Source of the DNA: Idiomarina loihiensis L2TR
GTDB taxonomy: Bacteria; Pseudomonadota; Gammaproteobacteria; Enterobacterales; Alteromonadaceae
Direction of reading: 5' to 3'
DNA: 32,000 nucleotides
Assembly (NCBI RefSeq): GCF_000008465.1
Contig: NC_006512.1
Span: forward strand, 2,760,001 to 2,792,000
The translations under genes were made by a program, and so were the position numbers. A model generated the notes under the pieces. The model had not been told where the DNA came from. It did no database searches and saw only the letters and a program-made list of their open reading frames with translations. This document shows, piece after piece, positions 8,302-32,000 of this stretch (the stretch's first letter is position 1; the number at the start of each line of letters is the position of its first letter).

Positions 8302-8450
8302 AAATTGTCTCCTTGATTGGGATTTAAAATGTATTCGTTCCTTAACGAGTCGAGAGCTAGTGTACGGACGGAGACAGATTGGATAAAACGAATAAAACGA
8401 ATTATGATAATCGAAAATACCAATTAAACAAATAACACGACGGATAACCT

Positions 8451-9365
8451 ATGAGTAAATTGCCGAGCCTGAAAAACCTGAGCTACTTACTGGCACTGCA
8501 CCAGGAACAAAACTTTAATCGTGCGGCAGCGGAATGCAATGTCAGCCAGTCGACACTGAGCAGTGGCATTCAAAATTTGGAAGAACAACTCGACTGCCAA
8601 CTTATTGAGCGTGACCATAAATCCTTTCTCTTTACCGCTTTAGGCGAGGAAATTGTGGAGAAAGCGCGGGACATTATCAGCGCCTCAGAAGAATTACTCC
8701 ATTATGCTCAGGGGCAGGGCAATATTATGGAGGGGCCGTTAAGACTCGGCATTATTCCCACCATAGCGCCCTTTGTCATTGGCGAGCTCAGTAAAAACTT
8801 ACAAAACAAGTTTCCTAAACTGCTACTGCAACTCTCTGAAGATACCACGCAAAATTTGTTGCACCGCCTGCGTAACGGCGAACTGGATATTCTTTTGCTG
8901 GCGCTGCCTATGGATATTCAAGGGAATCAGAAGTGGGTACTGGGTCGTGACCCGTTCAAGCTGGTTGTCCACAAAGAATTAGCAGAAACAATAGGCGAGC
9001 CCGTTGATTACGACAAGTTACCTGATCGCAGTATTTTTCTGCTGGAAAAAGAACACTGCATGACCGGCCATGCGGTCGCAGCCTGCCAGCTAACCGACTC
9101 AATTAAGATGAACCCTTTTACAGCAACCAGCCTGCACAGCCTGGTACAAATGGCTGACGCCCGCTTAGGCGCTACCTTTATTCCACAAATGGCCATTGAC
9201 CAGGGCATTTTGGAAAATACCGACCTTGTTTCATTAAAGCCTACCGGGCAGGAAGCCTCCCGCGATATTGGCCTGGTATACCGCCCAACCACCAGCCGCC
9301 GACAAACTTTCCGTAAAATTGCGGAAGAGGTTGCCAGGCTGCTGCCGGTCAATACCCTGAACTAA
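8451..9365 (+). CDS. oxyR: LysR-family hydrogen-peroxide sensor/regulator OxyR
   Basis: N-terminal wHTH (FNRAAAECNVSQSTLS), GPLRLGIIPT, FPKL...LSE, and the redox cysteine pair EKEHC-x8-C with the same 9-residue spacing as E. coli C199/C208, plus IGLVYRP. It is divergent from ahpCD. Confidence 0.85.
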   Translation: MSKLPSLKNLSYLLALHQEQNFNRAAAECNVSQSTLSSGIQNLEEQLDCQLIERDHKSFLFTALGEEIVEKARDIISASEELLHYAQGQGNIMEGPLRLGIIPTIAPFVIGELSKNLQNKFPKLLLQLSEDTTQNLLHRLRNGELDILLLALPMDIQGNQKWVLGRDPFKLVVHKELAETIGEPVDYDKLPDRSIFLLEKEHCMTGHAVAACQLTDSIKMNPFTATSLHSLVQMADARLGATFIPQMAIDQGILENTDLVSLKPTGQEASRDIGLVYRPTTSRRQTFRKIAEEVARLLPVNTLN

Positions 9366-9366
9366 A

Positions 9367-11009: not shown

Positions 11010-12143
11010 ATGTTCAATCCAAAGTTTGTTTTAACGGCAATATTGGCAGCTTCCGTAAGCGTGACGGCCACAGCCGAAGATGTCGAAACCGAACGCCATA
11101 AAGTTAGTGTCAGCACACTTGCGGATGGCTTTACTAACCCCTGGGGTATGACTTTTCTTCCTGACAAAAGCATTTTAGTTACCGAGCGCTCCGGCGACAT
11201 CTACTGGGTATCCGCCGACGGCAGTTATCGCGAAAAGATAAGCGGAACACCAGAGGTGGTAGCACAAGGCCAGGGTGGTATGCTGGATATTACCACTGAC
11301 CCTGACTTTGCTGAGAATAACTGGGTTTATATTAGCTACTCTGAAGCAGCACAGGACGGTGGGAAAGGGAATAGTACGGCCGTTATGCGGGCGAAACTTG
11401 ACGATAAAGAATTTACTGAGCAGGAAGTTGTTTTCCGTCAGGCACCTAAGTATGAAAGCAATAACCACTTTGGTTCCCGGTTAGTCTTTTCACCTGAAGG
11501 GCACTTATACATTACTTTAGGTGACCGCTATTCACGTATGGATGACGCACAGACACTGGATAACCATCACGGTAAAGTGATACGCATATGGCCTGATGGC
11601 AGCATCCCGAAAGACAACCCTTTTGTTAACAATGATAACGCTCTGGACGAAATCTGGTCTTACGGTCACCGCAATGTGCAGGGTGCCGATATTCATCCTG
11701 AAACGGGCGAGCTCTGGACTGTTGAACATGGCCCACAAGGCGGTGACGAAGTAAACATTCCGGAAGCTGGCAAAAATTACGGTTGGCCAGAAATTACTTA
11801 TGGTGTTGATTATGGCGGTGGCATTATCAGCGAAGACGCAGTCAAAGAAGGTATGGAGCAACCCTTCTATTACTGGGTACCCTCTATTGCCACGGCCGGA
11901 GCCACATTTTACAACGGCGATGCGTTTCCTGAGTGGAAAGGCGATTTCTTTGTCGCAGCTTTGAAAAGTTCACTGGTTGCTCGCCTGGACTTGTATGAAG
12001 GTCGTATGATGCATGAAGAGCGTTTATTTGAAGATGCTGTTGAAGCTCGTATTCGCGACATTAACCAAGGCCCTGACGGTTACCTCTATTTATTAACCGA
12101 CCAGCCTGACGGTGCCATCATTCAAATAAAACCGGCGGATTAA
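11010..12143 (+). CDS. yliI: Periplasmic PQQ-dependent aldose/sugar dehydrogenase (YliI/Asd type)
   Basis: Signal peptide (..SVSVTATA/ED). Colinear blocks match recalled E. coli YliI: PWGMTFLPD, GQGGMLD, NHFGSRLVF, IWSYGHRN.QG, EHGPQGGDE.N, GKNYGWP, IRD...GPDGYLYLLTD. AAGGAGAG SD upstream. Confidence 0.85.
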   Translation: MFNPKFVLTAILAASVSVTATAEDVETERHKVSVSTLADGFTNPWGMTFLPDKSILVTERSGDIYWVSADGSYREKISGTPEVVAQGQGGMLDITTDPDFAENNWVYISYSEAAQDGGKGNSTAVMRAKLDDKEFTEQEVVFRQAPKYESNNHFGSRLVFSPEGHLYITLGDRYSRMDDAQTLDNHHGKVIRIWPDGSIPKDNPFVNNDNALDEIWSYGHRNVQGADIHPETGELWTVEHGPQGGDEVNIPEAGKNYGWPEITYGVDYGGGIISEDAVKEGMEQPFYYWVPSIATAGATFYNGDAFPEWKGDFFVAALKSSLVARLDLYEGRMMHEERLFEDAVEARIRDINQGPDGYLYLLTDQPDGAIIQIKPAD

Positions 12144-12144
12144 T

Positions 12145-14178
12145 ATGTTGTACTCAGCTGTATTAAGAAAACTCACTTACACGGGGCTGCCTTTATTGGC
12201 GGCCTCTTTCGTTGTTCACTCCGCAGAAGTAGATGAAACCGTTGTTGTTACAGCGACACAAAGCGAGACGCCCTGGTTGACTACTGCGGCCAGTATCGAC
12301 CGCGTGAGCGTGGAAAACACCTTACCTTCTATGAAGATTGATGCTGGCGATGCCTTAGCCGGGGTGGCGGGCATTCAGGCTGACAACCGTTACAACTACG
12401 CACAGGATACACGCCTGGTGGTTCGGGGCTTTGGCTCGCGTGCGGCCTTTGGAGTAAGGGGTTTGCAGTTAAATGTCGACGGCATTCCGTTATCTATGCC
12501 CGACGGACAGGCACAAACTTCGAGCATTTTTCTCGACAGCATTGATTCGCTGGAAGTATTGCGCGGTCCATTAGCAACGCTGTACGGTAACTCCGGCGGT
12601 GGTGTGGTTGAATGGTTCAGCCGCAAGCCAACAGAAACCGCGTTGGAATGGGGTGGACAGTTCAGCGAAAATGACACTCAGCGGTACAATATTAATGCCC
12701 AGTGGGCAACCAACACCAATCAGCTGCAAATTTTAGCCTCAGATTTTCAGACCGACGGCCCGCGCAGGCATAACTCAGCCGAGCGCCAACAGCAGGCGAT
12801 ACGCTGGTATCATCAGTGGGACGAGCAGAACCGCTTTGTTATTCGTTACGACAATAACGATGCGCCATTATTGCAAGACCCCAGCGCACTAACGCCCGAA
12901 GACTGGCGCGAAGACCCAACTCAGACAGTACAACGGGCAATTGATTTCAACACGCGGAAAGATATTCACCACCGTCAGGGGTCTTTCAGCTGGTTTCATG
13001 AGAGCAACAATGGTGAGGGGTTACTCTCGCTGTGGCAGGGTGACCGCGATATAGAGCAGTTTCTGCCTTTTGCCGGTGACGACACAACAAGCTCGGGGGC
13101 CGTCATTGATGTCTCTCGTCAATTTGAAGGTGCTCATGCGCGCTGGCGTCAACGCGGAGTTAACTGGTCAGCAACCGTGGGAGCGCAATTAGAACGCCAG
13201 CAGGATCATCGCTTTGGTTATGTGAATGACAGCGGTGAAAAAGGTGACTTGCGCCGCAACGAATTCAACTGGATTGAAAATGCATCAGCTTATCTACGTT
13301 TTCAGTGGCAGTTATCGGAAGAGCTTTCAGCAACCGGCGGAGTTCGTTACAGCGACATCAATTATGAGGTAGAAGACTACTTTACCGATCTGGATAACTC
13401 CGATGACAGCGGCAGCAGCGACTTTAGTGAGACCACCGCAGCTGTTTCAGTTACCTGGCAGTTTCTGCCTACCTCGGCGACTTATCTGAGCATCGGGCAG
13501 GGATTTGAAACACCGACACTGACTGAGCTGGCATACCGAAATCAGGGCTCGGGCCTGAACCGCGAACTGGGTCCGTCCACGAATGATCAGTGGGAATGGG
13601 GTATCAAACACCAACTACCACAAGACTGGCGACTGCATTTCGCGTTCTTCGGTATTAAAAGCGAGGACGAAATACTGGTGGATCAGTCAAACGACGGTCG
13701 CACAACCTACCGCAACGCGTCGGAAACCTCGCGCGAAGGTGCTGAGCTCAGTATTAACGGCGCACTGACCCAGCAGTTAGATTTACTACTGTCATACAGT
13801 TACATCGATGCCACCTTTGATAATGGTCCGTTACAGGGGAATCAGTTGCCCGGCGTAGCAAAAAGTCAGGGCTATCTGCGTCTTAACTGGCAACCCACAG
13901 AGCAGTGGCTAGTTCAGTTAGCCGGCCAGTACCGTAACGAGACACCGGTTAATGATGCAAATGATACCTTTGCCCCGTCTTACACGACCTGGGATATTGC
14001 TGTAAGCCGCGATTGGCAATGGGCTAAGAGCGAGCTGGATGTGTGGGTACGGGTTGATAACATTACCGACAAAGACTACGTAGGAGCTGTTGTGGTTAAT
14101 CAGGGCAGTGGACGTTCATTTGAGCCCGCCGTAGGCCGGCAGGCAAGCGTCGGCATTAGCTGGCGCCGACGCTTTTAA
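12145..14178 (+). CDS. TonB-dependent receptor, YncD/PqqU-like (candidate PQQ importer)
   Basis: Signal peptide, plug domain and a beta-barrel ending in an aromatic residue (..ISWRRRF). Blocks NYAQD..L.VRGFGSR...G.RG..L.VDGIP..MPDGQ.QTS and DN..DK.YVG.V.VN...GR..EP..GR resemble my recollection of E. coli YncD. The ATG lies 1 nt after the dehydrogenase stop. Confidence 0.8.
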   Translation: MLYSAVLRKLTYTGLPLLAASFVVHSAEVDETVVVTATQSETPWLTTAASIDRVSVENTLPSMKIDAGDALAGVAGIQADNRYNYAQDTRLVVRGFGSRAAFGVRGLQLNVDGIPLSMPDGQAQTSSIFLDSIDSLEVLRGPLATLYGNSGGGVVEWFSRKPTETALEWGGQFSENDTQRYNINAQWATNTNQLQILASDFQTDGPRRHNSAERQQQAIRWYHQWDEQNRFVIRYDNNDAPLLQDPSALTPEDWREDPTQTVQRAIDFNTRKDIHHRQGSFSWFHESNNGEGLLSLWQGDRDIEQFLPFAGDDTTSSGAVIDVSRQFEGAHARWRQRGVNWSATVGAQLERQQDHRFGYVNDSGEKGDLRRNEFNWIENASAYLRFQWQLSEELSATGGVRYSDINYEVEDYFTDLDNSDDSGSSDFSETTAAVSVTWQFLPTSATYLSIGQGFETPTLTELAYRNQGSGLNRELGPSTNDQWEWGIKHQLPQDWRLHFAFFGIKSEDEILVDQSNDGRTTYRNASETSREGAELSINGALTQQLDLLLSYSYIDATFDNGPLQGNQLPGVAKSQGYLRLNWQPTEQWLVQLAGQYRNETPVNDANDTFAPSYTTWDIAVSRDWQWAKSELDVWVRVDNITDKDYVGAVVVNQGSGRSFEPAVGRQASVGISWRRRF

Positions 14179-21673: not shown

Positions 21674-23755
21674 ATGAAATACCAAACAGTTACCTTAAGT
21701 TTACTCTCTATCATAAGTATGGGCTCGTTTGCGCAAGAACAGGAGTCTTTCGAACACATTGAAGTCAATTATCGTCAGGCTTACCGCGGAGATGTTCCTG
21801 TTTCAGAAATTCCTCAGGCAATTACTACGCTGGACCGCAGCCTGGTGGATGATATTAATATTTCCCGTTTTCGCGATATTTTGCTGTTTTCTCCGTCAAT
21901 TGCTTTGCAAAACGACGGCGGTAACTTATGGGACAGCTACTCCATGCGCGGGTTTCCGGGCAACGAAAATGTACCTACTGGTTATTTAGTTAATGGTTTC
22001 TCCAGTGGTCGCGGATTCGGCGGGCATCGGGACGTTTCCAATATTGAGTACGTAGAAGTTCTGAAAGGCCCGGGCTCTGCACTGTATGGCCGCTCGGACC
22101 CGGGAGGGGTAATTAATGTAGTTACTCGTAAACCACAATACGCGCCGGAAGGATACTTAAAGACTTCCCTTGGCAGCGATGACCGCTATCGTCTTGAAGG
22201 AGACTACACCAGCGGCCTTAGCGATAGCCTCGCCATGCGGATAAACGGTGCAATACAGGACGACGACAGTTTCCGCGATCATGTCAGCAGCAAGAAAAAG
22301 GTTATTAACCCGTCGCTGCGCTGGCAACTGGATAAAGACACCTCCATACTTTATTCGTTTGAGTTCATGCAGCAGGAGCAGTTGTTTGACCGCGGCATTG
22401 TCGTTTTAGATAACAACATTAAAACTGTTCCACGAGAACGCTTTCTGGGCGAACCAAGTGATGACCCTACTAAAATCAATTCACAAGGCCACCAGTTAAC
22501 CTTTGAGCACTATCTGCAAAACGACTGGTTTTTAACCGGTGGTATTAATGCCAGAAGCACAAAGTTGGACGGCTACTCGTCAGATGCCGAGCTATCCGGC
22601 TCGCGCCAGAAACTATTTGAAGACGGCCGCACTCTGACACGTCAGCATCGCCGTCGTGACTATGACTCCGATGATTTATCAGTAAGGTTGGAATTAAGCG
22701 GTAACACAGAGCTGTTCGGTATGACCCATCACTTATTGATGGGAGCCGACGCATACCGTTATGACTTATACACCTTATTGGCTCGCGCCCGTCCGGAGCC
22801 AGGCACTTACGAGCTGGATATTTTTAACCCTCAGTATGGCGCAGCTAAACCAGAACTCCAGACTCAATACATTAACGATGAGAATCAAAAGGGCTTCGGT
22901 TTGTACGTGCAGGATCAACTTGAGCTTAATGACCAGTGGCATCTACTGCTGGGTTTAAGGCTGGATCAGTACACACAGGAAACCTTAGAGCTGGTTTCAG
23001 GTACGGAATCTGAACAGGATGACAGCCGGGTTAGCCCACGCGTTGCACTGAGCTACTTGCCAACGGATAACTTAACCCTGTATGCCAGTTATTCAGAAGG
23101 CTTTGTTCCTATTAGCGGCACCGACTTCGAAGGTCAGGGTTTTGACCCGGAAGAGAGCGACTCAGTAGAGCTGGGCATGAAATATTCCGCTCATGGCTTT
23201 CGGTTAAATGCGGCTGTTTTCGATGCCACCAAAACCAACATTCTTACGGATGACCCGGCTCACCCAGGCTATCCAGCCACGCTGGGCGCAGCAACCAGTA
23301 GAGGGTTTGAAATAGAAGGGGGCATGTCGCTAGGCAGTTACACCGATTTACAGGTTGCCTACAGCTACATAGACAGTGAAACAAAAAATGATATTACCGT
23401 TTACGACTGGGGCGTCAATGTCCCTGCCGGTAGTGACCTGGTAAATATTCCTCAGAATACCTTTAACGCCATGGTTAAACACGACCTCAGACACTGGCAA
23501 ATTAATGCTGATATAGGGCTTACTGCTCGCTATGTGGATGACCGTTTAGGCGCTACGGTCGATCAGTCGTATCGTCTGCCCAGTTATCAGGTGTTTGATC
23601 TGTTCTATACACACCGGTTAACCGACAACACTGAATTACAGATAAACGTTGATAACCTTTTTGACGAGTATTACATGTCGAACGCCTACTCTGCGCTTTG
23701 GACAACACCAGGAGCCCCAAGACAGTTTTCAGTGAGCCTGACTTATGAATTCTAA
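21674..23755 (+). CDS. TonB-dependent outer-membrane receptor (Zur-box controlled; ZnuD-like role inferred)
   Basis: 693 aa with a signal peptide (..SMGSFA/QE), plug domain (VEVLKGPGSALYGRSDPGGVINVVT) and a barrel ending ..SLTYEF. Confidence 0.9.
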   Translation: MKYQTVTLSLLSIISMGSFAQEQESFEHIEVNYRQAYRGDVPVSEIPQAITTLDRSLVDDINISRFRDILLFSPSIALQNDGGNLWDSYSMRGFPGNENVPTGYLVNGFSSGRGFGGHRDVSNIEYVEVLKGPGSALYGRSDPGGVINVVTRKPQYAPEGYLKTSLGSDDRYRLEGDYTSGLSDSLAMRINGAIQDDDSFRDHVSSKKKVINPSLRWQLDKDTSILYSFEFMQQEQLFDRGIVVLDNNIKTVPRERFLGEPSDDPTKINSQGHQLTFEHYLQNDWFLTGGINARSTKLDGYSSDAELSGSRQKLFEDGRTLTRQHRRRDYDSDDLSVRLELSGNTELFGMTHHLLMGADAYRYDLYTLLARARPEPGTYELDIFNPQYGAAKPELQTQYINDENQKGFGLYVQDQLELNDQWHLLLGLRLDQYTQETLELVSGTESEQDDSRVSPRVALSYLPTDNLTLYASYSEGFVPISGTDFEGQGFDPEESDSVELGMKYSAHGFRLNAAVFDATKTNILTDDPAHPGYPATLGAATSRGFEIEGGMSLGSYTDLQVAYSYIDSETKNDITVYDWGVNVPAGSDLVNIPQNTFNAMVKHDLRHWQINADIGLTARYVDDRLGATVDQSYRLPSYQVFDLFYTHRLTDNTELQINVDNLFDEYYMSNAYSALWTTPGAPRQFSVSLTYEF

Positions 23756-24890
23756 AACTATCACGCAAAGAATTAACAGTATTGATGCGTTGCGTGGGCT
23801 GGTCATTATATTGATGTTGCTGGACCACGTACGGGAGAGGTTCTTTTATAATCACCCGGTTGCAGACCCTATGATACTGGAAACTACGGAGCCGGGCTTA
23901 TTCTGGAGCCGTTTTGCCGCACATTTTTGTGCGCCCATATTTGTGTTTCTAACCGGCCTTTCAGCCTGGTTGTATCAGCAAAAGCATGACGGTTCGCCCA
24001 GCGTCGCCCGTGAGTTTTTATGGAAGCGCGGACTGTTCCTGGTGATATTGGAACTTACGGTCATCAACTTTTCATGGTTTGGCGCCTACGAAACACTGTA
24101 CCTGCAAGTAATATGGGTTATTGGTCTGTGCATGCTCATTCTGGGTGCCTGCGTTAATTTACCGTACCGGCTTCTGTTTGTGTTGGGTCTGCTTATTGTT
24201 GCCGGGCATAACGCGCTGGACTTTATCCACCTTAAACCGGGTGAGTGGGGCTATACAGCCTGGACCATTCTTCATGACCGCGGCTATATTTTACAGTCCG
24301 ACGCATTATCAATACGAGCCAGCTACCCGTTACTGCCGTGGATAGGCGTTATTTTGCTGGGTTATGCGGCCGGACCTTTGTATTCCAAATCCTTCTCATC
24401 TGAGCGCAGAGCCTATTGGTTATTAGGGCTAACGACGTTTTGCCTCGCCGGCTTTCTGTTGCTGCGTGGTTTTAATATCTACGGCGAGACACAGGCCTGG
24501 TCTCAGCAAGAGAGTTTAGCCGCCACCGCGCGGGCTATATTCAATGTGACCAAGTACCCGCCATCGCTGAATTTTCTGCAAATAACCTTTGCCGGCATGT
24601 TTGCCATGCTTTACCTAATGGAGCGCTTACAAGGAAAGTGGACGGAAGTTCTGACCGCTTTCGGTGGCGCACCCATGTTTTTCTACATAGTCCATCTTTA
24701 CGTTTTATTGCTGCTTTATACTCTGGCTACCGCAGTTTTAGGGGCGCCGGAGGAAGGCTTTATGAGTCTGCCCAACATTTATTGGGTGTGGTTAACCACC
24801 ATTGTACTGGCCGCCTTACTGTATAAGCCAACGCAAGTGTTTAACCGATACAAACGTCGCAGCAATAAAGCCTGGGTGAAATATTTATGA
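23745..24890 (+). CDS. DUF1624 (HGSNAT-like transmembrane acyltransferase fold) membrane protein
   Basis: 381 aa, polytopic. N-terminal R.NSIDALRGLVIILMLLDHVRE and C-terminal FGGAPMFFYIVH blocks are characteristic of DUF1624 / heparan-alpha-glucosaminide N-acetyltransferase-like proteins. Its ATG lies 11 nt inside the receptor gene. Confidence 0.75.
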   Translation: MNSKTITQRINSIDALRGLVIILMLLDHVRERFFYNHPVADPMILETTEPGLFWSRFAAHFCAPIFVFLTGLSAWLYQQKHDGSPSVAREFLWKRGLFLVILELTVINFSWFGAYETLYLQVIWVIGLCMLILGACVNLPYRLLFVLGLLIVAGHNALDFIHLKPGEWGYTAWTILHDRGYILQSDALSIRASYPLLPWIGVILLGYAAGPLYSKSFSSERRAYWLLGLTTFCLAGFLLLRGFNIYGETQAWSQQESLAATARAIFNVTKYPPSLNFLQITFAGMFAMLYLMERLQGKWTEVLTAFGGAPMFFYIVHLYVLLLLYTLATAVLGAPEEGFMSLPNIYWVWLTTIVLAALLYKPTQVFNRYKRRSNKAWVKYL

Positions 24891-24907
24891 TGGTTAAGGA
24901 GAAAGGC

Positions 24908-25267
24908 ATGAGTGACAGACTCGGTATATTTTTCTCTGGCCTGTGTTTTGTTCATTGTCTGGCAACGCCAATACTGCTTATTTTTCTGGGGACAAACTCG
25001 TTAGCGAGTGTTCTGGAAACGCCTTTGTTCCACCGGCTATTATTGCTGCCGGTGTTAACCATGGCGATATTTCAGGGGTATTATGCCTGGAAAAACCCGC
25101 AGGCGAAGCTCAGTCGGGTACTACTGCCGCTTGGTTGTTTAGCGGTCGTTATCGCCCAGTTTTTTCATGGCCCAATTGAAATCTTACTCACTATTATTGG
25201 CTCGCTTACCTTAATTAGTGGTCACTTTTTTCATTTAAAGCACGAGCACTGCGCAGATCAGAACTGA
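24908..25267 (+). CDS. MerC-like small membrane protein (4 TM) with Cys/His motifs
   Basis: About 119 aa from the ATG at 24908 (AAGGAGAAAGGC upstream; the track ORF starts at 24887). DR.G...SGLCFVHCLATP in the first TM helix resembles MerC-domain proteins. The C-terminal tail HFFHLKHEHC is rich in metal ligands. Confidence 0.6.
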   Translation: MSDRLGIFFSGLCFVHCLATPILLIFLGTNSLASVLETPLFHRLLLLPVLTMAIFQGYYAWKNPQAKLSRVLLPLGCLAVVIAQFFHGPIEILLTIIGSLTLISGHFFHLKHEHCADQN

Positions 25268-26490
25268 CCCGCGCTACTTGTAAGATAAAAGCCCATTCCG
25301 CCTAGCAGCCAAAGAACACTGATACCACACAGCCCATTCATAACCTTGTCACCTAAAGACGAACCGCCGCCATGGTCATGATGATGGTGGTGTTCGTGTT
25401 CTTTTTGCTTCTGCCGCCAAAGCACAACCATAACCACGCTCAGCAGTAAGAAAATAAGGTTGAGAACAAAACCATAGTCCAACTTAAAGTGCTGTTGTTC
25501 TGCCGGAGAGGACCACTGCGACGCATCCGGCAGTAGATCAAACGCCAGTAAACCATAATGCATAGCTAAAGACGCCGCTACCAGGCAGGTAAATAGCATT
25601 AAGGTAATATACAGTGCCATTTTCCAGCCATAATAACGCGCATTAATTTTAACAACCGGCAGTACAATTAAGTCGGAGAAAATAAACGCCATAACCCCGG
25701 CAAAGGCCACACCTTCACCAAACAAAACGGCCGCTAATGGAATGTTGCCCATAGAACCAATAAAGGTGAAAAATGCAGCCACCGGACCCACTATCGCTTG
25801 TTGAAGTAACGACCAGAAACCCGGGTCACCCTCTGTACCCACACCAATAAACAACCATTCAAAAAACGCACTAGGCAAAAAGGCTGAAATAACGCCGGCA
25901 ACGGTAAAACCAATGAGTACGTCTTGCCAGACCATTTGCCATTCCATTACGTACTTTTGGCCAACTTTCTGCCAGGTATCCTTACTGAAAAGATCCGATA
26001 ATGTGCTCTCGTGTTGATGTTCGTCGTCCTCTTCGTCTTCTTTTCGCGCATTCTTAATTAGGTTTTTAGGGTTGGTTAGCGTAATAAAGAGCCAGACGAA
26101 TAGAATTAGCAACAACCCGCCAACGTATTCACCAACTACAAACTGCCAACCAAGGAAAATAGAAATAACAAAACCCAGTTCAATAACCAGATTCGTGGAG
26201 GCCAGCATAAACGCCATTGAAGCACTGAACGCAGCCCCTTTGTTAAACAAAGCCCGGGTGGTTGATAGCGCAGCAAAACTGCAGGAACTGGAGATAAAGC
26301 CAAAGAAAGTACCCAGCGACACAGACTTAAGATCATTGCCGCCCATAGCCTTGCGCATTCGCCGCTTAGTGATAAGCACTTGGATTAAGCTACTGATTAA
26401 ATAACCTAATACAAACGCCCACAGCGCCATCCAGAAAAAACCCAGGCTGGTATAGGCCGACTCACCCCATAGCGATAGAAAATTCTCCAT
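25258..26490 (-). CDS. DUF318/ArsP-type permease with His/acidic-rich loops
   Basis: 410 aa, about 10 TM helices. The GFISSSCSFAALSTTRALFNKGA and ASTNLVIELG blocks are typical of the DUF318 permease family. A central loop reads KEDEEDDEHQHES and a C-proximal loop reads KEHEHHHHHDHGGG. AAGGAG SD. Confidence 0.7.
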   Translation of the reverse strand: MENFLSLWGESAYTSLGFFWMALWAFVLGYLISSLIQVLITKRRMRKAMGGNDLKSVSLGTFFGFISSSCSFAALSTTRALFNKGAAFSASMAFMLASTNLVIELGFVISIFLGWQFVVGEYVGGLLLILFVWLFITLTNPKNLIKNARKEDEEDDEHQHESTLSDLFSKDTWQKVGQKYVMEWQMVWQDVLIGFTVAGVISAFLPSAFFEWLFIGVGTEGDPGFWSLLQQAIVGPVAAFFTFIGSMGNIPLAAVLFGEGVAFAGVMAFIFSDLIVLPVVKINARYYGWKMALYITLMLFTCLVAASLAMHYGLLAFDLLPDASQWSSPAEQQHFKLDYGFVLNLIFLLLSVVMVVLWRQKQKEHEHHHHHDHGGGSSLGDKVMNGLCGISVLWLLGGMGFYLTSSAGQF

Positions 26491-26683
26491 GCTGGCTCCT
26501 TGGTCTGGTTAAATTATTTTAGAATTCAGCAGATTAAAATAAAAATATGACTACATTCAAAATAGTAGCTTACGTTAAGCCTGTCCAAAATTGATCAAAA
26601 CGCCTTGTTCCGTGACAGTCTCGTGACGTTTTCTTAAAAGAGCACTTTTGAGCCGCTTTCGTGTAGCCCCTTTTCATTTCCAG

Positions 26684-28003
26684 TTAAGCTGAGCTTTTAA
26701 TAAGAGTCTTTGAGTGTTCTTTATAGAAGCGCTGGCGGAAAAACCAGGCGGAACATACCATCAACACGCTACCCAGAAGAGCCGTAAAGTAAGCGCTCTC
26801 TAATAGAAAGTTTAGCCAACTTAGCTTTATTTCAAAGAAGTTACGGTACAGCAGTATACCGACGGTTCCCGCATAACCCATAGCATCCGCGATATAAATA
26901 AGAAATCCGGCATTAGCTTTGTCGTTTATCATCGATAACATGCGATCGAAAATAAGACAGTTAAAAGGAACATAAGCCAGATAAATCCCAATAGTTAGCG
27001 CTATCATCCATGATGAACCTGAAATTCCACCGCTTTGATAGAATAAGCTGCTAACACCTAAGAGAAGAAATCCCCCAATAACCATCAGATGGTTAACCAT
27101 AAATGCCCGAAAATTGTTTTTAATCCACATTATCGAGCTTAGCAAAAGTAGAACAGTCAATGACGTATACAGCGCAACGGAAGAAAATATTGCGGGTCTG
27201 TCGCCATACCCTAGTTCTATCCATATTTCTGCTGCAAAATTGTCACTGAAGTCGCGCATAGCGGTCAGTAATATATAACTGACGACCATGCAGCCCAAAC
27301 CTATCGAGTATTTCCGCACTAATTGGATCCTATCTTCGGATGTCATTGGCTCCCTTTTATGGCGTTCCTCTTTATCCTGGTGTGTCGGCGGGGGAATCCT
27401 GGAAAGAAAATATACGGAAATGAATAACGGGATAGTAAAAATAGCGCCCGTGGCAGCCGGCATCCAGTATTCGCTGACTTGTAAGTCCAGCATCAGGTAT
27501 TTACCGACGGTTTTTACGACACCAGAAGACACAATGAAACTAATAGATAAAATAGCACCCAAGACTTCCGTGGTTCTTCTTCCCTCTAAGTAACTGAAGA
27601 CCAGGCCCCAGATTATGCCTAACGGTAAACCGTTAAAGAATAGCGCGACTAGCTTCCAGTTCCCCGGCGCAACGGCAAAAGCCATAAGTGAGCACTGTGC
27701 TGCCATTACCAACGTGAGAATGGCAACACTGCGATAATTTGCCGTCATTTCCGATACGACTTTAATACCGACAAACTTGGATAGGGCGTAACCTAATACC
27801 TGCGCAATAATTAATGCACTTTTGAAATCGATCCCTGCAACGAACTGAGCCTGTTCGTAGCTTGCCACGGCAAAAGGCTTCCGGAACGCATACATACAAA
27901 AATAGGTCGAGAAAGCGGCACTTGAGGCGTAGAGAATAAACCAGAAGGTGTTACTGCGCTTTGTATTCTTAGTGAGAGAAACCATAAGTGCCATTCCTAC
28001 CAT
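26684..28003 (-). CDS. 12-TM MFS-fold-like transporter of unknown substrate (resembles the DUF5690 family from memory)
   Basis: About 440 aa and very hydrophobic with about 12 TM segments. It carries the blocks YFCMYAFRKPF and LGYALSKFVGIKVVSE. The track start (28018) is a TTG, so I list the first ATG (28003), but the start is uncertain. It lies 58-73 nt downstream of the DeoR gene on the same strand. Confidence 0.55.
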   Translation of the reverse strand: MVGMALMVSLTKNTKRSNTFWFILYASSAAFSTYFCMYAFRKPFAVASYEQAQFVAGIDFKSALIIAQVLGYALSKFVGIKVVSEMTANYRSVAILTLVMAAQCSLMAFAVAPGNWKLVALFFNGLPLGIIWGLVFSYLEGRRTTEVLGAILSISFIVSSGVVKTVGKYLMLDLQVSEYWMPAATGAIFTIPLFISVYFLSRIPPPTHQDKEERHKREPMTSEDRIQLVRKYSIGLGCMVVSYILLTAMRDFSDNFAAEIWIELGYGDRPAIFSSVALYTSLTVLLLLSSIMWIKNNFRAFMVNHLMVIGGFLLLGVSSLFYQSGGISGSSWMIALTIGIYLAYVPFNCLIFDRMLSMINDKANAGFLIYIADAMGYAGTVGILLYRNFFEIKLSWLNFLLESAYFTALLGSVLMVCSAWFFRQRFYKEHSKTLIKSSA

Positions 28004-28076
28004 TGTGAGAACGGCCAATATTACGCGCAGAATATGAAGAATTTATGTTACTACCCGACGCTAACCTGATAGCGGG

Positions 28077-28832
28077 TTAACGGCTACAAATAACCTCCAC
28101 TTGGGCATTATCGAGTGCAGATTTCAACGGGTCTTCGGGCGGTTTATCACAAACTATCGTATCAATTTGGTCAAAATCGGCCAGATGAACGGAACCAGCC
28201 CCACTAAACTTTGAAGAATCGGTCAGTACGACTTTTCGGCGAGCTCTATCAAGAAGTGAACGCTTAAAATTAGCCTCATCAATACTGAAATCAAGTAGCC
28301 CTATGTCGGAATGAATACCACCGATAGACAGAAATAGCAGATCGGGTGTGAACTGCCGAGCCTGAATAATAGCTTCCCGCCCGAAAGCGGCCCGGTAATC
28401 TGGATCAATTTGTCCACCAGTAAATGCTAACCGCCAATCATCGCGACCAATGACTTCATTTGCTACATCCAGCGAATTTGTCACTACCAGTAACTTCTTA
28501 GGTTTGGTCAACATTCTTGAAAACCAGTAACTGGTTGAACCACAGTCAATAAAAACCGTCATCCCATCTTCGACTAATTCGGTAGCTTTCTCTCCAACTT
28601 CTTTTTTAGCCGCAGCATTCAAACTTACGCGCCCTTGGTATGGGGGCTCTAGAGTTGAAGTGGAAAGACGAACTCCACCATGCACTTTAACCACTCTGCC
28701 GGTAGTTTCTAACTGCCGTATATCACGTCGTATGGTTTCTTCTGACACCTCAAAACGCTGTGAAAGATCGACAACAGACATTGATCTATGAAGCCTAATC
28801 AACTCCAACATAGTGATTAAACGCTCAGACAT
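28077..28832 (-). CDS. DeoR-family transcriptional regulator
   Basis: N-terminal HTH (LSQRFEVSEETIRRDIRQLE..G.V.KVHGG) and a C-terminal sugar-phosphate-binding DeoR_C-like domain. The start is ambiguous: Met at 28832 (MSERLITML, typical DeoR N-terminus), 28844 or 28880. Confidence 0.85.
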   Translation of the reverse strand: MSERLITMLELIRLHRSMSVVDLSQRFEVSEETIRRDIRQLETTGRVVKVHGGVRLSTSTLEPPYQGRVSLNAAAKKEVGEKATELVEDGMTVFIDCGSTSYWFSRMLTKPKKLLVVTNSLDVANEVIGRDDWRLAFTGGQIDPDYRAAFGREAIIQARQFTPDLLFLSIGGIHSDIGLLDFSIDEANFKRSLLDRARRKVVLTDSSKFSGAGSVHLADFDQIDTIVCDKPPEDPLKSALDNAQVEVICSR

Positions 28833-28980
28833 ATTCACATCCATCCCCACACGTTTATTGGTTGCGCGCATGTAATTCAATGAGTTAACAAGTTGCTACT
28901 TTAGAGCAGAAGTAAATCTTAATCCACTTCCAACATTAAAAACCACATAAACTCACATTATTAATAATTAATACAACAAA

Positions 28981-29014
28981 ATATCACACCACTGTCACAT
29001 TTTAATTCTATATT
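28981..29014 (+). promoter_or_regulatory. Candidate PhoB-dependent promoter: Pho box ATATCAC-ACCA-CTGTCAC, then 10 nt, then -10 TATATT
   Basis: Two 7-bp direct repeats at 11-bp periodicity (28981-28987 and 28992-28998). The second is a near-consensus half-site (CTGTCAT). The spacing to a -10 hexamer (29009-29014) matches what I recall for E. coli phoA. It lies 84 nt upstream of the receptor ATG. Confidence 0.45.
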
Positions 29015-29097
29015 GGCCTCGCTCAAAATCATAGCTGGAGGTGAAAGGTCATTTTGGTCCTATTACTTCCACGTTTAGCATACCTGGGGAGATACAC

Positions 29098-31443
29098 ATG
29101 AACGGCTACAAACGATTTGCACTTTCACCATTAATACTGGCAATAGCCTCAGCATCAGCGATAGCTGATCAGGATAAAGAAGAAACGAGTAAAAAAGACG
29201 AACAAATGGAAGAAATCATTGTTGTAGGTAAGAGACAGACTTTCGCCTCAAACACGGTTTCAATGGATATGATTTCACGTCGTCCAGCCAATGCTTCAGT
29301 AAACACTGTTGTACAGGAATTACCCGGAGTTATTGTACAGGAAGCTGATACCTTCGGTTCATCTGACTGGATGACTAACATCCGAATGCGAGGCTTTAAT
29401 ACCAATAACGGGCAAATTGGTACAACGCTTGATGGCTTACCAAACGGCGGCTCAAACTACGGCGGCGGTAGTAAAGCGAATAGATTTATTGACGTGCTCG
29501 ATCTTGAAACCGTGGAAGTCAGTCAGGGAACGGCGGATATCAGCTCGAGATCAAATGAGGCATTAGGTGGAACACTGAATTTCATTACTTCCGATCCATT
29601 AATGGAAGAAAACTTAAGCTTACTCTATATGGCAGGCGACCAGGACGCGAGTAAGTACCGTTTCCGTTACGACTCAGGTGAAATTAGTCCAGATACCTAC
29701 TTCTATCTCAGTGGCTCATCTTCGCAAAATAAGGACGTTTGGGATAATGAAGCTATCACGGAGAAAGATTATCTTACGGGTAAAATCACAACCATTATTG
29801 ATGGGTTTCATATTACAGGCTTCGCTACCTACAATTCGGCTAATGAAAACGAATATGAATATGTTTCTTTAGAAGATTATTATGAAAACCCTCGTCACGA
29901 CGGATTACACATGAACTGGACCGGAATTCCTGGTCTTGATGAAAACTATCGCGATGGCTGGCGTGCACTGCGTGATAATTCATTTTATAGTTTTCAGGTC
30001 GAAAAAGACTTTGGCAACTTTTCATTCAATACCGCCGTTTATTATCACAGAATGAAAGGCCGTGGTGACTGGATCCCTCCCTACATTACCGATGTCGATG
30101 GAGATGGAAACCTGGATAACGAACGCTCCGGTAACACAATTTATGGCGATTACGAGGGTGACGATATCTTTTTCGTTAACGCCGGTACAAATGTACCAGG
30201 TACATTGATTGACTCTTGCACTGGTCGATATGGTTTAGACGCTGAAAAAGATCCCAATTGTTATGATGGCAATGTCGAAGGGGTTGGCTCATATCGTACG
30301 TCAAATTATGCCAATCATCGTTATGGCATAACGGGGGATGTTTCCTACGACTTTGAAACTGGCAACATACAACATACCTTACGCAGCGGGTTTTGGTATG
30401 AAAACTACGATGCCGATGTAACGCGCTCATGGCATTTAGTTGAGAACTCGGCAATTAGCCCGGAATTCAATGAAACCCCTTACTGGATTCAATATAAAAC
30501 CGAAGCAAACACTAAAGAACTCATGTACTACGCTCAGGAAAAAGCGGTTTTAGGCCCGCTGAGCGCAAGTCTCGGCGTAAAACAATATCAGGTCGATACT
30601 ACGGTTGATCACTTCTATAACGATGACAGAACGGGTCAATTAGACTCCACTTCAGATCCGTTACTCTACGCAGGGTTAACCTATACAACACCGGTTAATG
30701 GTTTAGAGTTATTTGCCGGCTACTCTGAAAACTATAAATCCATTGTTCCTGGTATCATTGATTCCGGTTTATCTAATTCAGAACTGGGTGGCATTGATCC
30801 TGAAACGGCGGAGAACATTGAGTTAGGCTTCCGTTATATCAACAATGGCTTTAACGCAGCGGTTACCTTATACGACATTAAATTCGATAACCGAATTGTA
30901 CAATTGGATACTAGTGTATTGGATGGTATCGATTACAAAGAAGAAGTCGACGGCAGCTATGTGAACGTTGGTGGTCAGAAGAGTCGCGGCGCTGAACTGC
31001 TCACCTCATATCAAGTTACCAGCGGCCTGAGAGTTTCTGGGTCTTATACCTATAATGATGCTGAGTACCTTAGTACAGGTGATACCGGTCTTGACCAAGA
31101 CGCAGAAATTCGGGCTGGGAACCAAGTATACGGCGGACCAAAAACTTTCTTCACCATCGCAGCTGATTATGTCGGTAGCAACATAACGAGTGGAATCTCT
31201 CTGCGCCATATTGGGGATAGATTTATCAACTTTGAGAACTCAGCCACCGCGCCTGGGTATGAAGTGGTAGATGCCTACATTGGTACTGATATTCAGGGTG
31301 TTTCCTCCAGCATATCGGCTCTTCGCCTGCGTTTGAATGTGAATAACCTGCTCGACGATGAGTATATATCGGCTGTTGGCAGTAACAGTGTTTATCCCGG
31401 TTCACCAAGAACGGTGACTTTCTCTGTTAGTGCTGATTTTTAA
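29098..31443 (+). CDS. TonB-dependent outer-membrane receptor
   Basis: Start placed at MNGYKRFALSPLILAIASASAIA (ATG 29098, GGGGAGA upstream). The track's GTG at 29041 adds a non-signal-like extension. Plug domain (VEVSQGTADISSRSNEALGGTLNFIT) and a barrel ending ..SVSADF. Confidence 0.9.
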   Translation: MNGYKRFALSPLILAIASASAIADQDKEETSKKDEQMEEIIVVGKRQTFASNTVSMDMISRRPANASVNTVVQELPGVIVQEADTFGSSDWMTNIRMRGFNTNNGQIGTTLDGLPNGGSNYGGGSKANRFIDVLDLETVEVSQGTADISSRSNEALGGTLNFITSDPLMEENLSLLYMAGDQDASKYRFRYDSGEISPDTYFYLSGSSSQNKDVWDNEAITEKDYLTGKITTIIDGFHITGFATYNSANENEYEYVSLEDYYENPRHDGLHMNWTGIPGLDENYRDGWRALRDNSFYSFQVEKDFGNFSFNTAVYYHRMKGRGDWIPPYITDVDGDGNLDNERSGNTIYGDYEGDDIFFVNAGTNVPGTLIDSCTGRYGLDAEKDPNCYDGNVEGVGSYRTSNYANHRYGITGDVSYDFETGNIQHTLRSGFWYENYDADVTRSWHLVENSAISPEFNETPYWIQYKTEANTKELMYYAQEKAVLGPLSASLGVKQYQVDTTVDHFYNDDRTGQLDSTSDPLLYAGLTYTTPVNGLELFAGYSENYKSIVPGIIDSGLSNSELGGIDPETAENIELGFRYINNGFNAAVTLYDIKFDNRIVQLDTSVLDGIDYKEEVDGSYVNVGGQKSRGAELLTSYQVTSGLRVSGSYTYNDAEYLSTGDTGLDQDAEIRAGNQVYGGPKTFFTIAADYVGSNITSGISLRHIGDRFINFENSATAPGYEVVDAYIGTDIQGVSSSISALRLRLNVNNLLDDEYISAVGSNSVYPGSPRTVTFSVSADF

Positions 31444-31456
31444 CCAGATGTTAGGT

Positions 31457-31490
31457 AAGAGGCATTAGATTTCGAAATCTAATGCCTCTT
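31457..31490. repeat. Perfect 34-nt palindrome AAGAGGCATTAGATTTC/GAAATCTAATGCCTCTT between the receptor and phospholipase C genes
   Basis: Read directly: two 17-nt arms that are exact reverse complements. It starts 13 nt after the receptor stop and ends 1 nt before the AAGGAG SD of the next gene. No U-tract follows it on either strand. Confidence 0.9.
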
Positions 31491-31505
31491 CAAGGAGTTA
31501 CTTCT

Positions 31506-32000
31506 ATGGTCGATATTAGTCGCCGTCGGTTTCTTTTAGGGGCAGGAGCTGCCAGCGTAATGGCTTCTTTTCCCGCAATATCAAGAGCTTTGGCTATTCC
31601 TGCTGCGGTACGTACTGGCACGATAAAAGATATTGAGCACGTGGTTATTCTGATGCAGGAAAATCGGTCTTTTGATCATTACTTCGGTACCTTGTCAGGA
31701 GCACGAGGTTTTTCCGACCCTTATCCTGCACCAGCTAAATCGTTTGACCAAATCAAAGACCGTACGATATTCACGCAATTAAACCAAACTGAAATAGGCC
31801 CTAAATTTGTCACCCCATTTGCGTTAAATACACGCCAAACATTCGAACATATGCGTGTAGAAGGCACGCCTCATTCCTGGCCAGATGCGCAAGCGGCTTG
31901 GGATAACGGGCACATGGATCGTTGGCCAGAAGCAAAAAATCTGCACTCAATGGGTTACTTTGAGCGCGCGGATATGCCATTTCAGTACGCCTTAGCCGAT
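31506..32000 (+). CDS. Phosphocholine-specific (non-haemolytic type) phospholipase C / acid phosphatase family, Tat-exported (N-terminal 165 aa; continues beyond the window)
   Basis: My translation: MVDISRRRFLLGAGAASVMASFPAISRALA..GTIKDIEHVVILMQENRSFDHYFGTLSGARGF... This shows a twin-arginine signal (SRRRFLLG) followed by the conserved VILMQENRSFDHYFGT block of the PlcH/PlcN/AcpA phosphoesterase family. Confidence 0.85.
   Translation, partial: MVDISRRRFLLGAGAASVMASFPAISRALAIPAAVRTGTIKDIEHVVILMQENRSFDHYFGTLSGARGFSDPYPAPAKSFDQIKDRTIFTQLNQTEIGPKFVTPFALNTRQTFEHMRVEGTPHSWPDAQAAWDNGHMDRWPEAKNLHSMGYFERADMPFQYALAD

Follow-up and report, generated by a model that had tools for sequence, protein, structure and literature searches.

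A receptor–phospholipase C locus of Idiomarina loihiensis with a DUF5690 transporter: a candidate system for scavenging phosphorus from lipid head groups

Gene content and conservation of the locus

The DNA analysed here (the window) is a stretch of 32,000 nucleotides from the genome of Idiomarina loihiensis L2TR (NC_006512.1, positions 2,760,001 to 2,792,000). Its last part, 26684–32000, carries two divergent gene units that an earlier note, made from the sequence alone, had proposed as a system for scavenging phosphorylated lipid head groups. The open reading frame (ORF) map and scans of the window with Pfam and NCBIfam domain models confirmed the four genes that had been placed there. On the minus strand, a gene for a DeoR-family regulator of 251 aa (28077–28832) is followed by a transporter gene of the Pfam family DUF5690 (PF18943; 26684–28018), which encodes 444 aa from a TTG start and has alternative ATG starts at 28003 and 27985. 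The two are separated by 58 nt, or by 73 nt when ATG 28003 is used, as previously described. The plus strand encodes a TonB-dependent receptor (TBDR) of 781 aa (29098–31443) and, from an ATG at 31506 that lies 62 nt past the TBDR stop codon, a phospholipase C (PLC) of the PlcH/PlcN type with a twin-arginine translocation (Tat) signal. The end of the window cuts the latter gene and leaves its N-terminal 165 codons (31506–32000). The longest deoR ORF reaches 28880, and orthologue lengths of 251–253 aa favour the ATG at 28832. The TBDR ORF opens at GTG 29041, and orthologues of 781 aa point to ATG 29098, which is probably the real start. The divergent control region, for which a length of 217 bp or more had been given, measures 217 nt from the longest DeoR ORF and 265 nt (28833–29097) from the orthologue-supported starts.

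The layout of the window was found again in relatives of 97% (L001), 89% (L085), and 61–76% (L090, L091) identity, and in a near-identical metagenome contig (L089); loci from other genomes and contigs are designated by such L numbers. The enzyme gene is completed in L001, L085, and L089, and the layout of five genes, which includes a gene just beyond the window, is identical in L089 and L091. Because the layout recurs in relatives, and because distant high-GC contigs likewise bring the four gene families together, in different orders, these comparisons indicate that it is no chance juxtaposition. In L001 (ENA contig_407), frameshifts split nearly every gene, including the TBDR gene into three pieces and the DUF5690 gene into two. 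Breaks of this kind characterise uncorrected long-read assemblies rather than pseudogenisation; the genes are intact in L085 and L089.

The N-terminus of the window PLC, MVDISRRRFLLGAGAA, contains the twin-arginine motif SRRRFLLGAGAA at residues 5–16, including SRRRFLLG, and was matched by the Pfam TAT_signal model at 6.4e-4 (20.0 bits, just under the cut-off of 22.7). The fragment of 165 residues matched Phosphoesterase (PF04185) at 5.1e-28 and the NCBIfam model PC_PLC (TIGR03396) at 2.4e-60 with 204.7 bits. The full-length protein, taken from L089 (9409–11448), has 679 aa, is 99% identical to the window fragment, and reaches 776.3 bits with TIGR03396 against a cut-off of 580.25. Both PF04185 and the C-terminal domain PLipase_C_C (PF05506) were matched in the L001 orthologue, and the closest solved relative is the phospholipase C 9gy2_A (E 1e-186). 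Judged by these scores the window enzyme is a true member of the PlcH/PlcN-type PLC family. The earlier note had left room for the part beyond the window to contradict a phospholipase; the complete protein bears its assignment out, together with that of the Tat signal. An acid phosphatase of the AcpA type was ruled out by the score with TIGR03397 (94.9 bits against 362.75) and by the C-terminal PLC domain. The enzyme would be exported via Tat, and its predicted activity is that of a phosphocholine-specific PLC. PlcH-type enzymes may also cleave phosphonolipids. A literature search for PLC action on the ceramide conjugate of 2-aminoethylphosphonate (AEP) yielded nothing usable.

The fifth gene starts 26 nt past the PLC stop codon, just beyond the window, and encodes a HAD-IB hydrolase of 222 aa (TIGR01490, 136 bits against a cut-off of 98.3) with a DxDGT motif at residues 10–14. 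It is taken to be cytoplasmic since it has no signal peptide. The named proteins closest to it are the phosphatases of histidinol phosphate and of phosphoserine, both matched below their cut-offs. By established chemistry, histidinol phosphate and phosphoserine are 2-aminoalkyl phosphates and would share their scaffold with phosphoethanolamine. Among loci with the TBDR–PLC pair, the HAD-IB gene was found only where DUF5690 is present, and the two also stand together in four further loci of the Alteromonadales type (L002, L084, L169, L171).

The receptor–phospholipase pair and its control region

The TBDR was matched by the Pfam Plug domain at 1.3e-11 and by TonB_dep_Rec_b-barrel at 2.6e-34, and its translation shows a signal peptide and a TonB-box-like EEIIVVG. 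The siderophore receptor model TIGR01783 reached 158 bits against a cut-off of 223.5 and covered the C-terminal half only; the matches in the PDB, CntO and FoxA, were likewise confined to the C-terminal barrel. A siderophore receptor is unsupported by these scores and by the tie of the gene to a PLC and a Pho box. Full-length orthologues with 41–53% identity were found in Bowmanella, Idiomarina, Caulobacterales, Sphingomonadales, Xanthomonas, and Stenotrophomonas. In S. maltophilia the TBDR gene is followed by the PLC gene after 9 nt and adjoins phoD; Bowmanella denitrificans has the TBDR–PLC pair divergent from deoR, and a Phenylobacterium has deoR divergent from the TBDR gene only.

A scan of metagenomes with the TBDR alignment gave 80 further loci, in which co-occurrence was scored by tblastn, as ORF calling in the high-GC contigs had produced some spurious long ORFs. 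Where a TBDR is at least 42% identical to that of the window (42–79%) and there is room downstream, essentially every locus, about 50 in all, has the PLC gene on the same strand within 11–300 nt. At 40% identity or less the PLC was never the next gene, and several loci have a PF01663 phosphodiesterase instead. The TBDR–PLC pair is thus tightly conserved across these loci. A DeoR orthologue is encoded divergently from the TBDR in 13 loci, and the conserved core, as it appears from gene neighbourhoods, is the TBDR–PLC pair with or without a divergent deoR. DUF5690 occurs in only about 10 of some 55 TBDR–PLC loci. Because most of these loci lack DUF5690, HAD-IB, and DeoR, the three are regarded as accessories and not as obligatory components.

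Within the TBDR–PLC loci, DUF5690 was found almost only where DeoR is present. The window layout is seen in L089, L090, and L091, the last of which also has HAD-IB; DUF5690 is convergent with deoR in the high-GC contigs L104, L114, L119, and L146, forms a TBDR–PLC–DUF5690 operon in L106, and is also carried by the TBDR–PLC locus L143. In addition, the PLC gene adjoins DUF5690 in Caulobacter, Phenylobacterium, and a sphingomonad (L012, L014, L020, L077), together with genes of the PhnZ type and/or the PbfD type for AEP catabolism; in L077, a phnZ-type gene is divergent from the series PLC, DUF5690, and an oxidase dependent on flavin adenine dinucleotide (FAD). The PLC-linked DUF5690 proteins do not form a single clade and are intermingled in sequence with those linked to AEP genes: the window protein shares 70% identity with that of L084, which has an AEP context, and only 61% with that of L091, which has a PLC context, while the L106 protein is 73% identical to that of the AEP-context locus L048. 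This interleaving indicates that the association of PLC with DUF5690 has been assembled several times, and such repeated assembly is the strongest argument that the two work together. A TPR-sulfotransferase and an oxygenase similar to Asp/Arg-beta-hydroxylases lie beside the PLC, PhnZ-type, and DUF5690 genes in Caulobacter (L014, 3224–6319; L012, 1508–4406), and the TPR-sulfotransferase is also found near a Bowmanella pacifica cluster (L169, 1–743).

The control region contains a Pho-box-like site, ATATCAC-ACCA-CTGTCAC, on the strand of the TBDR gene (28981–28998). It has two mismatches to CTGTCAYN4CTGTCAY, and 0.43 such sites are expected per window. The site has the promoter layout of two 7-nt repeats 4 nt apart lying about 10 nt upstream of a -10 element; the -10-like hexamer TATATT (29009–29014) begins 10 nt past its end. 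In L085 the half-sites are kept and the spacer differs. Sites with no more than three mismatches lie on the same strand 67–117 nt upstream of the start codon in Bowmanella, Phenylobacterium (one mismatch), and Stenotrophomonas, and the fraction of shuffled sequences reaching the observed match was 0.0002–0.012 per locus. Among PLC-linked TBDR loci, a Pho-box-like site was found upstream in 41 of 54, against none of 54 control windows placed within genes; kinship among these loci is frequent, yet their sites differ in sequence. The TBDR–PLC operon is therefore probably under the control of PhoB and phosphate starvation, in agreement with the Pho-regulated phosphate scavenging suggested before. 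Scans for sigma-70 promoters and terminators over 26400–32000 were uninformative, with hits that were fewer, or no more, than in shuffled sequences.

Pho-box-like sites with one or two mismatches were also seen upstream of a sister subfamily of TBDRs (L150–L167, at most 40% identity), and in several of these loci a PF01663-type phosphodiesterase of about 360–390 aa follows the receptor. The wider receptor clade appears, from these neighbourhoods, to be dedicated to phosphorus scavenging. A second Pho-box-like site of the window, ACGTCACGAGACTGTCAC (26612–26629, minus strand, two mismatches), lies in the space that separates the end of the DUF5690 gene from the gene for an ArsP_1-type permease, and precedes the latter by about 120 nt. 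Two or more sites per window were obtained in 6 of 100 shuffles, and this site may be due to chance.

The regulator matched HTH_DeoR (PF08220) at 2.8e-16 and DeoRC (PF00455) at 4.8e-43. It remained under the cut-off of every NCBIfam equivalog model (AgaR, GlpR, SrlR, FucR, UlaR, DeoR), the best scores being 160.7 against 260 for AgaR and 159.6 against 300 for GlpR_Halo. Its orthologues in Bowmanella and Phenylobacterium, which are 50–55% identical, are encoded divergently from the orthologous TBDR. A direct CACAT repeat, CACATAAACTCACAT (28944–28958, plus strand), lies just upstream of the Pho box. The pattern, with 14 specified bases, has this single copy in the window and a single one in 88 loci, namely in the intergenic region between deoR and the TBDR gene of an alphaproteobacterial contig (L088, 6888–6902). 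A variant with CCACA repeats, chosen post hoc, was present upstream of the TBDR gene in 11 of 13 loci with DeoR and in 1 of 61 loci without it. We read the CACAT/CCACA repeats as a putative DeoR operator, positioned such that the bound repressor would interfere with activation by PhoB.

The spacer between the TBDR and PLC genes holds a perfect 15-bp stem-loop on the plus strand (31457–31490), with a folding energy of -24.2 kcal/mol and a z-score of -4.46. Hairpins of unrelated sequence were found in the same spacer of L091 and L087. This suggests a partial terminator or attenuator, or an mRNA stabiliser, after the receptor gene, which would set the ratio of receptor to enzyme.

The DUF5690 transporter, its genomic company, and other genes of the window

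The transporter matches DUF5690 over its full length (1.5e-156, 521.6 bits against a cut-off of 25, profile positions 1–382 of 382). No NCBIfam model matched it, nor did Pfam MFS_1 at E ≤ 0.01. The family had been left unnamed in the earlier note; the search with profile models now assigns it, and a literature search for DUF5690 or PF18943 found no functional description. An AlphaFold2 model built with 18 homologues had a predicted local distance difference test (pLDDT) score of 86.6 and a predicted template modelling (pTM) score of 0.86, and showed 12 transmembrane (TM) helices. When this model was compared with the PDB by Foldseek, 386 matches at E ≤ 0.001 were obtained, of which the top 50 listed were all transporters of the major facilitator superfamily (MFS). 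DUF5690 is predicted by this model to have the MFS fold, as expected from the description of the protein as MFS-like with 12 TM helices. The top match was human G6PT/SLC37A4 (E 3.3e-8, 16–17% identity).

A search of the DUF5690 profile against PDB sequences gave no significant match, and the only hit was again SLC37A4 at E 0.39–0.99. In this insignificant alignment (E about 0.4), three motifs are in register: 'yafRKpF' of DUF5690 with 'yfnRKtF' in TM1 of G6PT, 'GyalSKfiG' with 'aYAiSKFvS', and 'flnGlplGmiW' with 'FLNGLaQGLGW'. The family alignment shows no variation at R46, K47, R255, and D256. A distant kinship of DUF5690 to organophosphate:phosphate exchangers is suggested by these features but not established.

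To describe the genomic company of the family, genomes were scanned with a DUF5690 alignment, one genome per species. More than 6,700 homologues were scored, and at least 80 loci were obtained from Bacteroidota, Caulobacterales, Sphingomonadales, Steroidobacteraceae, and Alteromonadales, all at most 53% identical to the window protein among the matches listed; closer relatives were reached by look-ups of exact proteins. ORFs were called and clustered, and one representative per cluster was named with NCBIfam and Pfam; the names of the PhnX-like and Phn-HD clusters come from scores slightly short of the curated cut-offs. At least one AEP-catabolic gene, encoding a PbfD-type FAD oxidase, a PhnX-like hydrolase, PhnW, PbfA, or a PhnZ-type enzyme, was found within 10 kb of DUF5690 in 64 of the 74 listed loci from other genomes. 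Counted over 75 listed loci with a DUF5690 ORF and within the same distance, a phosphonatase-type HAD protein resembling PhnX (best match TIGR03351) was present in 49, a TIGR03364 FAD oxidoreductase of the PbfD family in 41, PbfA in 16, PhnW in 15, and a PhnZ-type HD oxygenase in 12. The FAD oxidase directly adjoins DUF5690 in most of the 41 loci (median gap 0). The PbfD family oxidises AEP and N-methyl-AEP to phosphonoacetaldehyde (PMC10590968). Other neighbours were SusC (30) and SusD (28) in Bacteroidota, a PF01663 phosphodiesterase with a PA14 domain (21), a TBDR of 933 aa (7), a Tat-exported PLC of the family found in the window (4), and a PF04185 phosphoesterase of 945 aa (4).

Because AEP-catabolic genes accompany it in the large majority of listed loci, DUF5690 is best read as an importer of compounds of the AEP type. 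The paper on AEP transporters (PMC8316502), the PbfD paper (PMC10590968), and a review of 2023 (PMC10574752) mention no such transporter. AEP is carried by the ABC systems AepXVW and AepSTU and by AepP, a GlpT-like permease that is 28% identical to GlpT (PMC8316502). DUF5690 genes resemble those of AepP and AepX in being co-localised with phnW/phnX-type or related AEP genes. DUF5690 nevertheless forms a Pfam family of its own, whose only match to the antiporter family that includes AepP, in the search of PDB sequences, was the insignificant one to SLC37A4. Identity with AepP was ruled out, given the GlpT-like nature of AepP (PMC8316502), the separate Pfam family, and the insignificant match to antiporters.

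Alteromonadales-type loci combine DUF5690 with HAD-IB in several ways. In Paraglaciecola hydrolytica (L002), phnW overlaps the HAD-IB gene (8058–9808) in the company of GntR, TBDRs, and a large metallophosphoesterase; no PhnX was found within 10 kb, and HAD-IB occupies the position usual for phnX. This HAD-IB protein may hydrolyse phosphonoacetaldehyde as a non-canonical enzyme of that activity, or may be a phosphatase of phospho-amines. In L084, a metallophosphoesterase gene is directly followed by DUF5690, with divergent HD, Ureidogly_lyase-like, and HAD genes. Bowmanella pacifica (L169) and Alteromonas gilva (L171) have a gntR gene divergent from a series encoding a TBDR, a phosphodiesterase with PA14 domain, a Ureidogly_lyase-like protein, HAD-IB, and PhyH, and also carry DUF5690 and an HD oxygenase. 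By analogy, this set resembles an oxidative route of the PhnY*/PhnZ type or of the TmpA/TmpB type. The Ureidogly_lyase-like protein (a cupin), HAD-IB, the PhyH dioxygenase, and the HD oxygenase recur as a trio or quartet beside DUF5690 in these loci (L084, 5868–7815; L169, 10336–12550; L171, 10349–12570). The cupin and the HAD protein, which have no assigned role in the known oxidative pathways for AEP and its trimethylated form TMAEP, may represent new accessory steps.

The gene neighbourhoods point to a recurring plan in which a receptor of the outer membrane and an exported phosphodiesterase are combined with DUF5690, HAD-IB, and a regulator; enzymes of C–P cleavage may be present or absent. 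The locus of the window is the version in which a PLC serves as the phosphodiesterase and a C–P enzyme is lacking. Neither the 32 kb of the window nor the flanks of the cluster were found to hold phosphonate catabolic genes, and phnW, pbfD, phnY*, phnZ, and phnA were likewise absent beside the cluster in L089, L091, L104, L106, L114, and L146. PbfD–PhnX, PhnW–PhnX, and PhnY*/PhnZ clusters (PMC10590968) are the usual partners of DUF5690, whereas the window pairs it with a PLC and HAD-IB.

Further receptors are encoded elsewhere in the window. At 11010–14178 (plus strand), a gene for a dehydrogenase of glucose or sorbosone dependent on pyrroloquinoline quinone (PQQ; GSDH, 1e-141) is followed after 1 nt by a TBDR gene, whose product has the PQQ importer PqqU as its best NCBIfam match (490 bits, below the cut-off of 1200). 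By these matches the pair looks like an apo-dehydrogenase with a receptor that scavenges its cofactor. A siderophore-type TBDR gene (21674–23755) overlaps the gene for a HGSNAT/acyltransferase_3 membrane protein (23745–24890), which in turn overlaps that for a MerC-like protein (24887–25267); the convergent ArsP_1-type permease, with a His-rich tail, is encoded at 25258–26490. The block 21674–26490 is conserved in L085 and L001. From its gene content, the unusual operon of receptor, acyltransferase, and MerC-like protein is possibly metal-related.

A candidate pathway for head-group phosphorus

The evidence is drawn together in the following reading, to which we attach about even confidence. 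The five genes would form a phosphorus-scavenging module that PhoB switches on and DeoR represses. In it, the PLC would liberate a head group of the aminoethyl-phosphate or aminoethyl-phosphonate type, with the TBDR dealing with either substrate or product; import of the head group would fall to DUF5690, and release of phosphate to HAD-IB. Under phosphate limitation, PhoB would activate the TBDR–PLC–HAD operon via the site at 28981–28998, while DeoR would repress it via the CACAT/CCACA repeats until a substrate-derived inducer, phosphorylated or phosphonylated, releases it. The Tat-exported PLC, placed in its family by sequence, is predicted to cut the lipid–O–P bond of phospholipids; phosphonolipids and lyso- or glycerophospho-diesters are possible further substrates. 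The product would be a small zwitterionic head group, namely phosphocholine, phosphoethanolamine, or AEP. Either the substrate or this product would pass the outer membrane through the TBDR, and the head group of the aminoethyl-phosphate or -phosphonate type would then cross the inner membrane through DUF5690, as its genomic partners suggest. Finally, the cytoplasmic HAD-IB protein would free orthophosphate from head groups that are phosphate esters. In the lineage of the window, such esters (phosphoethanolamine or phosphocholine) are favoured as the main cargo because no C–P cleavage gene is present, because the PLC scores as phosphocholine-specific, and because the relatives of HAD-IB dephosphorylate 2-aminoalkyl phosphates. 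Sister loci with PhnW, PbfD/PhnX, or PhnY*/PhnZ-type genes would use DUF5690 for phosphonates of the AEP type.

Two proposals of the earlier note are modified by this reading. The idea that the four genes serve one pathway is strengthened by the repeated co-occurrence of DeoR, DUF5690, TBDR, and PLC in varied arrangements, although the unit now comprises five genes and its core is the TBDR–PLC pair with facultative DeoR. A phosphorylated head group as the cargo agrees with the confirmed PLC, but the cargo is narrowed to the aminoethyl-phosphate or -phosphonate type and may be a phosphonate, in view of the AEP genes in most of the listed DUF5690 loci.

Several points weigh against the proposed module. 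The specificities assigned to the PLC, TBDR, DUF5690, HAD-IB, and DeoR all rest on context. Most TBDR–PLC loci are without the three accessory genes, and many of the metagenomic loci are closely related to one another, so that the counts overstate their independence. Porins could pass a small head group, and the part given to the TBDR is therefore tentative. The CCACA-repeat pattern was defined after inspection of the sequences. The likeness of DUF5690 to organophosphate:phosphate antiporters is insignificant by sequence, and its fold match to SLC37A4 is barely better than those to other MFS families. Moreover, DUF5690 is chiefly tied to genes for phosphonates and not for phosphate esters, and yet the window and the flanks of the cluster lack phosphonate catabolic genes, which makes the cargo ambiguous.

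This last point bears on the main rival, a system confined to phosphonolipids, in which the PLC would free AEP or N-methyl AEP (for example from ceramide-AEP), DUF5690 would import AEP only, HAD-IB would replace PhnX as a non-canonical hydrolase of phosphonoacetaldehyde, and the transaminase or oxidase would be encoded elsewhere in the genome. Besides the overwhelming tie of DUF5690 to AEP catabolism, such a system is consistent with the four loci in which a PLC of the same family stands with PhnZ-type and/or PbfD-type genes and DUF5690 (L077, L012, L014, L020), and with the overlap of HAD-IB and phnW in L002, where no PhnX was seen within 10 kb; outside Alteromonadales the partner is the PhnX-like HAD protein, in 49 of the 75 listed loci, and HAD-IB could be its analogue. 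We nevertheless consider it unlikely. None of phnW, pbfD, phnY*, phnZ, and phnA is encoded in the window or beside the cluster in the six related loci named above, the nearest named relatives of HAD-IB are phosphomonoesterases, and HAD-IB also occurs in loci of the PhyH/HD oxidative route, in which no phosphonoacetaldehyde arises. In addition, the PLC scores as a phosphocholine-specific PLC equivalog.

The Pho box would also suit a recycling of the cell's own membrane under phosphorus starvation, where the PLC strips the phospholipids of the cell, DUF5690 recaptures the head group from the periplasm, HAD-IB recovers the phosphate, and the TBDR is co-regulated but mechanistically separate. The PhoB regulon of Caulobacter indeed pairs a PLC with lipid-remodelling genes and TBDRs (PMC11208175). 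The tight and ancient coupling of TBDR to PLC, with spacers down to 11 nt in about 50 loci, suggests instead that the enzyme acts on a compound handled by the receptor, and both the substrate-type repression by DeoR and the occurrence of the PLC in loci for the catabolism of exogenous phosphonates fit foraging better, which makes membrane recycling improbable in our estimate. Slightly less probable still, as we judge it, is the alternative that two unrelated neighbours are seen, that is, a TBDR–PLC unit for phosphorus scavenging, with or without DeoR, and an independent aminophosphonate permease brought next to it by rearrangement. Most TBDR–PLC loci do lack DUF5690, and most DUF5690 loci lack a PLC, which only 4 of the 74 listed loci have. 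However, four or more lineages of DUF5690 that differ in sequence show the association, in three or more gene orders, among them one with DUF5690 in the operon directly after the PLC (L106, L077), and DUF5690 is almost confined to those TBDR–PLC loci that have DeoR. Both membrane recycling and juxtaposition fit the TBDR–PLC coupling and the repeated re-assembly less well than the five-gene scavenging module does.

The proposed module shares several features with PlcH/PlcN of Pseudomonas aeruginosa. The enzymes belong to the same family (TIGR03396, Phosphoesterase and PLipase_C_C domains, Tat signal), control by phosphate starvation is likely in both, and a HAD-superfamily phosphatase acts after the PLC in both (in P. 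aeruginosa the phosphocholine phosphatase PchP, alongside choline uptake). In the window, however, a TBDR gene leads the operon and the PLC gene comes second, no gene for a PlcR-like chaperone was seen in the locus as judged from gene content only, HAD-IB is predicted to be cytoplasmic, and a dedicated MFS importer, DUF5690, is present. The importer implies that the intact phospho-head group would be taken up and then dephosphorylated inside the cell, whereas P. aeruginosa dephosphorylates it in the periplasm.

Plant-associated Bacteroidetes have Pho-induced SusCD-like PusCD proteins and TonB-dependent transporters with periplasmic phosphodiesterases (PMC8115612). PusCD is similar to the present system in that a TonB-dependent importer of the outer membrane is encoded together with phosphodiesterases and that phosphate depletion induces PusCD. 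The window differs in having a classical proteobacterial TBDR of 781 aa, no SusD-like gene in the locus, and a PLC of the PlcH type, and in encoding also the inner-membrane step by DUF5690 and a DeoR repressor. Pho-induced, TonB-dependent uptake of organophosphorus compounds thus exists as a concept for Bacteroidetes (PMC8115612), and a TonB receptor for such compounds, of which the earlier note knew no dedicated example, has some precedent.

DUF5690 resembles GlpT, UhpT, and SLC37 proteins in the MFS fold with 12 TM helices, in having SLC37A4 as its best PDB match by sequence and by fold, and in the aligned 'RK-F', 'SKF', and 'LNG..G..W' motifs, at a sequence E of about 0.4. The regulator shares with DeoR/GlpR repressors the HTH_DeoR and DeoRC domains, the position divergent from the presumed target operon, and candidate operators of direct repeats; its presumed target, in contrast to theirs, is an outer-membrane receptor with a lipid phosphodiesterase and not a sugar catabolic operon. 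A literature search found no description of a conserved TBDR–PLC operon or its combination with a Pho box, of the DeoR partner and its operator, or of any function of DUF5690. As read from sequence comparison, the TBDR–PLC operon with its DeoR partner appears to be new here; the by-product that we value most is the lead on the function of DUF5690, the first for this family.

A broader proposition is put forward tentatively, and we think it rather less probable than otherwise. DUF5690 would be a widespread family of importers for AEP, its N-methyl forms, phosphoethanolamine, and phosphocholine, and would supply the AEP permease so far missing from the picture in marine Bacteroidota and in many Proteobacteria. 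The TBDR–PLC operon would be the first TonB-dependent pathway dedicated to the phosphorus of phospholipids and phosphonolipids, with DeoR sensing the head group and with HAD-IB as a new phosphatase for phosphoethanolamine or phosphocholine, or as an alternative phosphonatase.

Phospholipids and phosphonolipids form a large pool of organic phosphorus in sea and soil, and the passage of their head groups over the two membranes of Gram-negative bacteria is poorly described. If the proposal is true, it would give a function to a large DUF transporter family and add a fourth route of aminophosphonate uptake, neither ABC-type nor GlpT-like, to the marine phosphorus redox cycle. It would also establish a conserved, Pho-regulated operon of TonB receptor and PLC that extends to relatives of Stenotrophomonas and Xanthomonas, and would provide a testable pair of regulator and operator.

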